Shown here: in pieces, positions 60,621 to 62,056 of the stretch | Layout of the letters: every line of letters begins with the position of its first letter | How positions within the stretch are numbered: position 1 is the stretch's first letter | Source: Minisyncoccota bacterium | Lineage (GTDB): Bacteria; Patescibacteriota; Minisyncoccia; Phycocordibacterales; JABMNX01 | Reading direction: 5' to 3' | Assembly: GCA_026195275.1 (NCBI GenBank) | Contig: JAPHQU010000003.1 | Location: 71,852 to 135,851 of the forward strand | Length of the DNA: 64,000 nt | Translations under genes and position numbers: made by a program | The notes under the pieces: model-generated | What the model saw: only the letters and a program-made list of their open reading frames with translations | What the model was told of the DNA's origin: nothing | Database searches by the model: none

Positions 60621-61295
60621 GTGAACGATCAAAATAGCATGCAGGGCGGCATCGGCGAGACAAAGCCGTTCCAACAGGTCATTCTTGACATGTTGGATCC
60701 AAAAAACAAGAACGAATATGCGGTCTCAACCGCACAAGGACTATTCCTTGCTCGCGCCGCGTTCGCGGCACTCACCACACACGTCTTTGCGACCGAGATA
60801 TCGGGTACTGAAGATCTGGAGAAGATACTCGCCTACCAAAGGATGGCGGCAGAAAATCTCCAGATCACCAGTGAGACACTCGATGCGGTGCTCGACATCA
60901 TCGAGTTCCGATCAAAAAGCAATGAGATCAACCTCAGCCTCCACCCGGCGCACCAGACTCTTGTGAAGATCCTGATGACGCTCGGTACCAAGGAGTGTCT
61001 GGTATCAGCAACCGCGCCAATCGTGGTGATGGGTGACGATGCGAAGAAAGGGGTGTTCAACACCCTTTGCGATCTCGTCACCAAAATGGACATACCCGGA
61101 TACGCGCAGCAAAGTCTTCTGGACGCACTCAACGAAAATGGTTGGCGTCTCGGCTTCAACCTGGACAACACACACTTGGTTTCTGCGACCGATTCGCTCA
61201 AACGGCGAATGGGCATCAACACGGAAGACACTGCTTCGGCCGACTTTGACGTCGTCTCGAGACAGCCGGATGCGGACAATATCGCGGCTCAATAA
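60621..61295 (+). CDS. Hypothetical helical protein (ORFan-like)
   Basis: 224-aa ORF, GTG start after AAGGAG, followed by a terminator. Confidence 0.6.
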   Translation: MNDQNSMQGGIGETKPFQQVILDMLDPKNKNEYAVSTAQGLFLARAAFAALTTHVFATEISGTEDLEKILAYQRMAAENLQITSETLDAVLDIIEFRSKSNEINLSLHPAHQTLVKILMTLGTKECLVSATAPIVVMGDDAKKGVFNTLCDLVTKMDIPGYAQQSLLDALNENGWRLGFNLDNTHLVSATDSLKRRMGINTEDTASADFDVVSRQPDADNIAAQ

Positions 61296-61334
61296 AAACT
61301 CCTTTCATTCACCCTCTTTCACAGAAGGTACACC

Positions 61335-61373
61335 CCGCCCACCGAGGTATTCTCGGTGGGCGGTTTCTTTTTT
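61335..61373 (+). terminator. Intrinsic terminator
   Basis: CCGCCCACCGAG-GTATT-CTCGGTGGGCGG followed by a T-rich run. Confidence 0.75.
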
Positions 61374-61397
61374 GATAGCATCTTTTGTATTATGTAG

Positions 61398-61551
61398 ATG
61401 AGTCGCCACCTCAATGAAGTCTCTTCATTGAGTGCTGGCGTCCTCGGAGGGGGCGGACTCGATCTGCTTGTGCATGCAACGTGCACACCCCGTAGCGACC
61501 GTTCTGCCCCCTCCACCCCACCCTTCCCGGCGTCCACACGCCGGGTTTTTT
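61398..61551 (+). ncRNA. Candidate structured small RNA, family not recognised
   Basis: Two long hairpins with G-U pairs on the + strand, ending in a CCCGGCGT/ACGCCGGG hairpin and a T-run. Confidence 0.35.
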
Positions 61552-61560
61552 ATTTTTAAC

Positions 61561-61578
61561 TGGTGACCCTACGGGGAA
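61561..61578 (-). repeat. Duplicate of tRNA-Glu 3' end, carrying CCA
   Basis: 61563-61578 identical to 61766-61781; minus strand reads TTCCCCGTAGGGTCACCA. Confidence 0.9.
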
Positions 61579-61766
61579 GGCGTCAGGTTTCTAAGCTCTC
61601 GCCACACCCCATAGGGTGTGGCAATCACTAAGAACCTCCTGCCCGGACTCGGCGACAAGCCTCCGCCTGCGGCGGATCTTGTATACCGCCTCCGTCTTTC
61701 GATTCCCCGTAGGTAACCCTGCAGACACTAAAAAGCCGATGCTTTGCATCGGTCTTTTAGTGTCTG

Positions 61767-61838
61767 TGACCCTACGGGGAATCGAACCCCGGTTTCATCC
61801 GTGAGAGGGATGTGTCCTAGCCGCTAGACGATAGGGCC
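61767..61838 (-). tRNA. tRNA-Glu (anticodon CTC), CCA not encoded
   Basis: GGCCCTATCGTCTAGCGGCTAGGACACATCCCTCTCACGGATGAAACCGGGGTTCGATTCCCCGTAGGGTCA folds to a cloverleaf; anticodon loop CT-CTC-AC. Confidence 0.95.
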
Positions 61839-62001
61839 TAATAGTACTGCTTTTATTCTGAGTGTCCAATGAGAGTTTGTGCATCTCACCCAGGACACAT
61901 CCCTCTACGAGGGCTTGCCCTATCGTCTCGTAAACATCGACGATTTCCTCGCGGTTGCGAGGAACCGGATGAAAAGCAAAGCAGTTTGCTTTTCATTCCA
62001 A

Positions 62002-62022
62002 TAGCCGCTAGACGATAGGGCC
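62002..62022 (-). repeat. Duplicate of tRNA-Glu 5' end (21 bp)
   Basis: Identical to 61818-61838. Confidence 0.92.
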
Positions 62023-62056
62023 AAATTTCAATGCCCCACATGTGTGAGGCATTGAT

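Follow-up and report, generated by a model that had tools for sequence, protein, structure and literature searches.

The 5′ spacer of the tRNA-Glu(CTC) gene studied here is a copy of element A, a small, tightly folded element without protein genes that belongs to ultra-small bacteria (Patescibacteria). The copies of this element share a scaffold with a conserved fold, begin at a GG junction, occur at many different targets, carry a guide that matches the target in a characteristic register, and are accompanied by a rebuilt tRNA gene beside or inside the element. These features suggest, at about even chances in our judgement, a non-autonomous, self-guided element of folded single-stranded DNA that is inserted in trans after GG and rebuilds the tRNA gene it enters.

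Architecture of the tRNA-Glu(CTC) locus

The window is the whole stretch of DNA that was analysed (64,000 nucleotides), taken from a host genome of 600 kb; the features below lie on its minus strand unless noted. The intact tRNA-Glu(CTC) gene (61767–61838) has no encoded CCA. The 5′ spacer is bounded by a direct copy of tRNA nucleotides 1–21 (62002–62022), the 5′ remnant left by the interruption of the gene; likewise the tRNA 3′ end, CCA included, is repeated directly at 61561–61578, where it closes the 3′ spacer as the 3′ remnant. Since remnants close both spacers, the locus is an intact tRNA gene between two inserts of 184 and 203 bp. The left junction (61997–62001) reads TT and then GGA, with the crossover between tRNA nucleotides 21 and 24; within this range the exact point is ambiguous in the Glu subfamily.

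The conserved 78-nt scaffold A (61919–61996) consists of hairpin 1, hairpin 2, stem 3, and AGG. Hairpin 1 (61969–61996, 12 bp) has a near-invariant loop region and is likely to serve as a protein-binding site. Hairpin 2 (61945–61964) varies in sequence with compensatory changes, and the loop of stem 3 (61922–61944) holds a whole tRNA gene in some homologues. A masking strand (61909–61914), which repeats a short stretch of the anticodon stem in sense orientation, pairs with the guide's 5′ part. The guide (61892–61906) is 15 nt long, antisense to tRNA nucleotides 21–35, and covaries with the local tRNA-Glu in homologues. A second masking arm (61862–61867) pairs with the 3′ part of the guide and is not conserved in homologues. 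A weak promoter-like site (61841–61868; 9/12, a consensus match only) lies just before the intact tRNA. No ORF was found inside element A. Upstream of the locus, a hairpin (62028–62055) is shared with the tRNA-Glu(TTC) gene of the same genome, an empty paralogue that keeps this hairpin and lacks scaffold A.

The neighbours of the locus are murF and a 224-aa ORF (60621–61295, plus strand), and no integrase gene adjoins the att-like site. The ORF matched no Pfam family and gave no usable Atlas match. More hairpins lie between this ORF and the 3′ remnant (61323–61553), at 61335–61363, 61410–61432, 61446–61514, and 61526–61545. At about 32–40 kb in the window, the GC skew changes sign from positive to negative, in the manner of a replication terminus.

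The earlier note had described three inverted tRNA segments in the 5′ spacer and proposed multi-segment target recognition. The segments are present and 100% complementary to tRNA-Glu(CTC): 61892–61906 to nucleotides 21–35, 61917–61928 to nucleotides 2–13, and 61966–61974 to nucleotides 38–46. With the 16-nt segment of the 3′ spacer they give antisense coverage of 52 of the 72 tRNA nucleotides, and the local pairing partners and an extra 8-bp hairpin were likewise confirmed (z = −4.5 as RNA). When the spacer was shuffled 3000 times with dinucleotides preserved, no antisense match reached 15 nt, and one of at least 12 nt arose once; matches of at least 9 nt arose in 2.3% of the shuffles, so that the 9-nt segment alone is weak.

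Recognition by three segments did not survive the comparison with homologues, because two of the segments are scaffold (the 9-nt one fully, the 12-nt one mostly) and only the 15-nt segment is target-specific. The 3′ arm of hairpin 1 accounts for the 9-nt segment, which is unchanged in 58 of 123 copies; among these, the window's copy alone has a nearby matching tRNA. Most of the 12-nt segment comes from stem 3, of which it takes the 3′ arm, and from the conserved AGG. Its pairing with nucleotides 2–13 of tRNA-Glu averages 9.1/12 in Glu rows (n = 11) and 7.4/12 in non-Glu rows (n = 43, four mis-called rows included), three of which reach 10; only the window's copy reaches 12/12. The 12-nt segment is mostly scaffold and may be slightly adapted to the target. 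The earlier note had also asked for homologous spacers and for covariation between segments and target, and had named the lack of homologues or of a conserved scaffold as grounds for abandoning the idea. Homologues exist, they share a conserved scaffold, and one segment covaries as a guide would.

The 3′ spacer belongs to a second family with a mirror-image layout of intact tRNA, hairpin, guide, scaffold, and 3′ remnant. Element B starts with a 21-bp terminator-like hairpin (61722–61766), followed by a guide antisense to tRNA nucleotides 53–68 (61698–61713) and by scaffold B (61579–61697), which is conserved and forms a family separate from scaffold A. The element B family was found in 43 of 201 genomes, and in 12 of 17 copies at least 10 of 13 positions pair across the T-loop junction (Glu, Phe, His, Ser, Ala, and Arg tRNAs). 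A scaffold 98.5% identical to that of element B begins contig C4 of the same genome, and probably continues the element B copy behind tRNA-Glu(TTC) on contig C1. Element B is also seen at two protein-gene ends of this genome (C1:134000–134080 and C4:2600–2760), where an antisense piece and a direct repeat of the gene end accompany it; we take the two genes to be clpP and ftsZ. Several contigs of the genome end within these elements (C1:1–52, C4:1–135, and the end of C6), and assemblies probably under-count the elements as a result.

Upstream 5′ copies without scaffold A are found at tRNA-Met (C1:60167–60340), tRNA-Ile(GAT) (C2:5630–5850), tRNA-Thr(TGT) (C2:64910–65111), and tRNA-Val(GAC) (C1:1480–1629) of the same genome, and the Met and Thr(TGT) loci have antisense pieces in addition. 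These four loci are further families with the same logic.

Fold, distribution, and insertion sites of scaffold A

The alignment of scaffold A contains 42 of 54 candidate copies, after removal of four mis-called, four near-duplicate, and four long-loop rows. In these 42 homologues 98.4% of the cells of the three-hairpin fold pair, compared with 41–51% in slid controls; two-sided changes occur in 14 of the 26 scaffold pairs, with 168 compensatory cells. The predicted three-hairpin fold is strongly supported by this covariation.

Scaffold A was detected with a covariance model in 67 of 151 genomes of the order, and BLAST found homologues of the 5′ spacer in 127 of 401 genomes of the order, mostly of hairpin 1 only. 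Outside the order such homologues are rare: a pattern search of 301 class genomes found three, the genome studied here among them, and this genome alone had one among 151 genomes drawn across the phylum. No Rfam 15 family matched the spacer or the scaffold up to E = 10; only the tRNA was matched. The literature that we searched does not describe the element, although a description could still stand in subscription papers, or the motif in preprint supplements as an unnamed cluster; two language-model preprints of 2026 mention neither Patescibacteria nor CPR in their main text. A phage origin was considered and rejected: the hairpin-1 pattern had no match in viral contigs, and none of the 120 viral-contig loci given by a shorter motif has the extended hairpin or the scaffold.

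The partial 5′ copies that precede scaffold A come from tRNAs for Glu, Gln, Ser, Leu, Thr, Val, Lys, Phe, Cys, Tyr, Ile, and Ala; the scaffold is also found in 23S rRNA, inside the 3′ family (element B), and inside other repeats. Sorted roughly by sequence pattern, 122 distinct copies fall at 77 tRNA, 6 rRNA, 19 repeat, and 20 other sites. The left end lies after GG or GGA in 110 of these 122 copies. The junction is at the D-loop GG in most tRNAs, at nucleotides 9–10 in many Leu tRNAs, and at nucleotides 21–23 in Gln and Glu tRNAs. Among 28 D-loop copies, 17 return to the target sequence at +2 behind the scaffold before folding back (18 rows, from which one spurious self-match was dropped), and in all 17 valid resumed copies the T at +1 is replaced by A or G.

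The position of the intact tRNA should be noted, since it varies between copies: downstream of the scaffold, upstream of it, or within the loop of stem 3. The last arrangement is seen in ten Gln copies and in the genome studied here, where a second scaffold-A copy (L007, C4:17459–17700) holds tRNA-Leu(TAG) in its stem-3 loop, flanked on either side by decayed tRNA pieces. Tandem units of element A also occur. As empty alleles, five murF-linked tRNA-Glu loci are without scaffold A, and it is present at two others (L041 and L136). In 23S rRNA, a single site close to the 5′ end carries scaffold A as an intervening sequence without a guide (L057, L128, L132, L204, L205, and L055). A third repeat family, located after tRNAs, is a frequent host of scaffold A insertions (L051, L062, L063, L112, L116, L118, L129, L139, L187, and L203).

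In one genome, G130, five scaffolds with 80–99% identity are found at Val-TAC, Lys-CTT, Lys-TTT, Thr-TGT, and Ser-GCT, and behind each of them comes a guide that matches the tRNA at that site. The scaffolds at Ser and Lys-TTT share 98.8% identity and have unrelated guides. Scaffold identity is higher between different targets in the same genome (mean 0.81, 21 pairs) than between different genomes at the same target (0.72, 88 pairs), though the nearest neighbour of a scaffold goes about as often with genome (4 of 13) as with target (3 of 13). The Ser guide module is found again in other families, which makes gene conversion of the scaffold an alternative to fresh retargeting in G130.

The guide and the proposed mode of insertion

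Judged from sequence, the 15-nt segment is a swappable guide that matches its own tRNA across the insertion point. Of the 49 non-nested copies for which a cognate tRNA exists, 34 show a significant antisense duplex (p ≤ 0.01 versus shuffles) and all 34 duplexes span the junction, which is favoured by a test window centred on the junction. The cognate tRNA scored above every other tRNA type in 26 of 35 guides of an earlier set, and at nine Glu loci the guide and the mask follow three variants of the anticodon stem. In 26 non-Glu guides (including that of L096, probably a false register), Watson–Crick pairs are found at −4, −3, −2, +1, +2, and +3 in 26, 25, 25, 26, 25, and 25 cases, respectively. 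At −1, the G just before the junction, only 6 of the 26 are Watson–Crick, the others being 16 G-A, 3 G-G, and 1 G-T. The guides match seven different target triplets at +1 to +3, even though the remnant does not contain these positions. In the Glu subfamily, to which the window's copy belongs, the guide lies mostly 3′ of the junction (+1 to +10), with the −1 position paired in 7 of 8. The guides derive from about five related lineages, and all these counts overstate their independence. We consider it likely, from these matches, that the guide directs the element to its insertion site by base pairing.

The remaining 15 of the 49 copies have no significant guide, and no guide is visible in the copies of scaffold A in 23S rRNA or inside repeats, indicating that a guide is not needed for insertion. 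Such insertions agree with the main rival explanation, a guide-independent mobile hairpin at GG sites, whose antisense piece arises by fold-back template switching and is kept as a seal of the remnant or a shield of the intact copy. The resumption of the target at +2 to +5 after the scaffold, turning then into the antisense piece, is what template switching would leave, and in non-Glu copies the greater part of the guide can pair in cis with the remnant and the mask. However, copying yields perfect complements, whereas 20 of the 26 guides (Leu, Ser, Val, Cys, Lys, and Thr) are mispaired at −1, and the +1 base of the resumed target is changed in every valid case. In the short Leu and Ser forms, moreover, positions +1 to +3 of the guide have no cis partner yet match the intact tRNA. 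We regard the fold-back account as serious, if unlikely.

In the self-guided mode of insertion, the scaffold, guide, spacer, and tRNA 5′ piece would be excised or copied as a single-stranded circle, and a protein would bind hairpin 1. The guide would then anneal across the GG junction to an empty tRNA gene, on its non-template strand, and in most non-Glu copies the G before the cut would stay mispaired. Strand transfer would occur after GG; the old 5′ end would stay behind as the remnant, and the 5′ piece brought by the element, often with upstream sequence, would restore the full tRNA. Access to the guide would be controlled by the short hairpins that cover it. The conserved fold, the GG junction, the guide duplexes with their register, the occurrence of the scaffold at many tRNAs, the tandem units, the empty alleles, and the G130 set count for this mechanism. 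It is weighed down by the guide-less copies, the apparently missing replication-strand bias, the lack of a recurrent mobiliser, the resumption at +2, the different guide register of the Glu copies, and the non-independence of the lineages.

The strand carrying GCGNAGC bears on the nature of the mobile form. This motif is found on the tRNA-sense strand 39 times and on the other strand once in the 5′ family (95 segments), and 22 versus 0 times in the 3′ family (27 segments). The available text of PMC13037366 describes GCGNAGC as forming extraordinarily stable DNA mini-hairpins and a related tetraloop as much less stable in RNA. The location on the sense strand together with the stability as DNA favours, and does not prove, a single-stranded DNA form.

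These triloops speak against an RNA-level unit, which would be either a pre-tRNA leader whose antisense piece invades the tRNA to control folding or processing, or a ribozyme-like module that inserts as RNA. Every orientable copy of element A lies on the sense strand of its tRNA or 23S rRNA, which favours such a unit, and no clear replication-strand bias is seen: local GC skew, a noisy measure, is positive on the element strand in 48 of 82 copies. G-U-type wobbles outnumber A-C pairs 23 to 11 in the guide duplexes. The minimum-energy fold of remnant, spacer, and tRNA contains the guide–tRNA pairing, whereas the centroid keeps the anticodon and T arms. A leader that sequesters the tRNA, as the earlier note had offered alternatively, is thus thermodynamically possible; it leaves the copies in 23S rRNA and inside other repeats unexplained. 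The patchy presence, the tandem copies, and the insertion into other repeats fit mobility rather than regulation, no reverse transcriptase was found in the genome, and no ribozyme family was matched. An RNA-level unit is improbable on this balance.

An HUH/Y1-type enzyme is the best candidate for the mobilising protein, by analogy only. Neither an autonomous version nor a recurrent neighbouring mobiliser was found among 473 ORFs in 90 loci, where one Y1 match lies in a flank. The recurrent neighbours are housekeeping genes; a serine recombinase occurs in four loci, and one small ORF, which we take to be GIY-YIG-like, in three. Y1 genes are present in 49 of 67 carriers versus 41 of 84 non-carriers of scaffold A (Fisher p = 0.003, with kin not independent), and were not found in the element-rich genomes G130, G059, and G127. 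The genome studied here has one Y1 gene and three tyrosine recombinases. The Y1 gene, which encodes 230 aa and is RAYT-like, is flanked by, and contains, its own perfect palindrome (L068:1140–2060; contig C5, about 49 kb), and this palindrome is different from scaffold A.

The three tyrosine recombinases would suit a further explanation, in which the element is a minimal attP-type relic of tRNA islands of tyrosine or serine recombinases, or a folded single-stranded attP for a host Xer-type recombinase. The remnant and the rebuilt tRNA resemble the attL/attR pattern of integrated islands. One scaffold with unrelated targets and three different tRNA positions is unlike att sites read by a protein, and no integrase was found in or beside the elements in the 90 loci. 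We consider this origin very improbable. Still harder to credit is that the spacer is an orphan bridge RNA of an IS110-family recombinase, in line with the analogy drawn in the earlier note. A constant scaffold, a target-matched part, and a dinucleotide core are shared with bridge RNAs, as far as the accessible part of PMC11208160 describes them. The architecture, however, has one continuous antisense guide outside the scaffold instead of paired sense and antisense guides in two loops, and already largely refutes this reading; no IS110 gene (PF02371) was found in the genome studied here or in any of five element-rich genomes.

Bridge RNAs are known to program insertion through base pairing, and IS608 has been engineered in vitro to do so. 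If the self-guided mode is true, a natural element of less than 200 bp with a modular guide points to an enzyme for guided, break-free insertion, and explains both the tRNA genes lying amid their own fragments in streamlined genomes and the assembly breaks at these places. The claim is directly testable, since the substrates are of oligonucleotide size. We tentatively picture, at a little under an even chance, a natural, self-programmed, protein-less mobile DNA, in which a constant single-stranded scaffold is joined to a swappable DNA guide of 11–17 nt, a trans-acting enzyme is directed to insert at any chosen site behind a GG, a designed mismatch marks the cut, and the essential gene entered is repaired. 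Together with the mirror-image 3′ family it would possibly, with similar reserve on our part, constitute a DNA-guided integration system not yet described.

Comparison with known systems

Islands and prophages that integrate into tRNA genes rebuild the interrupted tRNA with a piece that they carry, leaving a remnant at the far end. Element A likewise rebuilds its target gene and leaves a direct-repeat remnant. It differs in its size (about 100–190 bp), the absence of an integrase, the crossover on the 5′ side, and the many unrelated targets.

Element A resembles the IS200/IS605 family, represented by IS608, in its terminal hairpin and in using base pairs with its own strand to choose the target (PMC5934647 and PMC6006769, in the parts available); the pairing of element A is read from covariation. 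Wild-type IS608 has a second hairpin that blocks extended pairing 3′ of the left-end hairpin, and engineered IS608 was retargeted to 12–17-nt sites by such extended pairing, according to the available text of PMC5934647. The extra pairing 3′ of the left-end hairpin and the masking hairpin over the pairing region are further likenesses to the engineered form described there. Contrarily, element A encodes no TnpA Y1 transposase, with or without TnpB, its natural guide of 11–17 nt spans the insertion point, it carries a replacement tRNA end, and no tetranucleotide guide is seen at the 5′ foot of the hairpin. IS608 insertion is tied to the lagging-strand template (PMC5027513, accessible part), whereas the noisy local GC skew shows no clear lagging-strand bias for element A (48/82 copies).

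REP, REPIN, and BIME sequences with their RAYT (TnpA-REP) proteins are similar as short, non-coding palindromic repeats that are thought to be mobilised in trans and that nest in other palindromes (available portions of PMC3733652 and PMC6006769). The GTAG/GTGG or CGTC tag of these repeats, as given in the same portions, is absent before hairpin 1 of element A, where the bases are target-derived and have only GG in common. Element A also differs in its low copy number, defined tRNA positions, and target-specific guide, and the Y1 gene of the genome studied here is not flanked by the same repeat.

With the bridge RNA of IS110, in the account accessible in PMC11208160, element A shares the constant scaffold, the target-matched segment, and the dinucleotide core. 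Its single antisense guide lies outside the scaffold. It has no donor-binding loop, no pair of loops for target and donor that both hold sense and antisense guides, and no recombinase, and the target end is duplicated. The internal guide sequence of group I introns offers a likeness in the antisense guide across the junction and the non-standard pair at the site (PMC3984707, in the text available). Compared with the introns outlined there, element A is far too small; its 78-nt three-hairpin fold contains neither a P3–P7 core nor the wider P3–P9 catalytic core with the G-binding site in P7. Since the tRNA is rebuilt in DNA, no splicing is needed. Element A lacks defining features of IS200/IS605 elements, REP/RAYT systems, bridge RNAs, group I introns, and integrase islands, and works most like a guided single-strand transposon.
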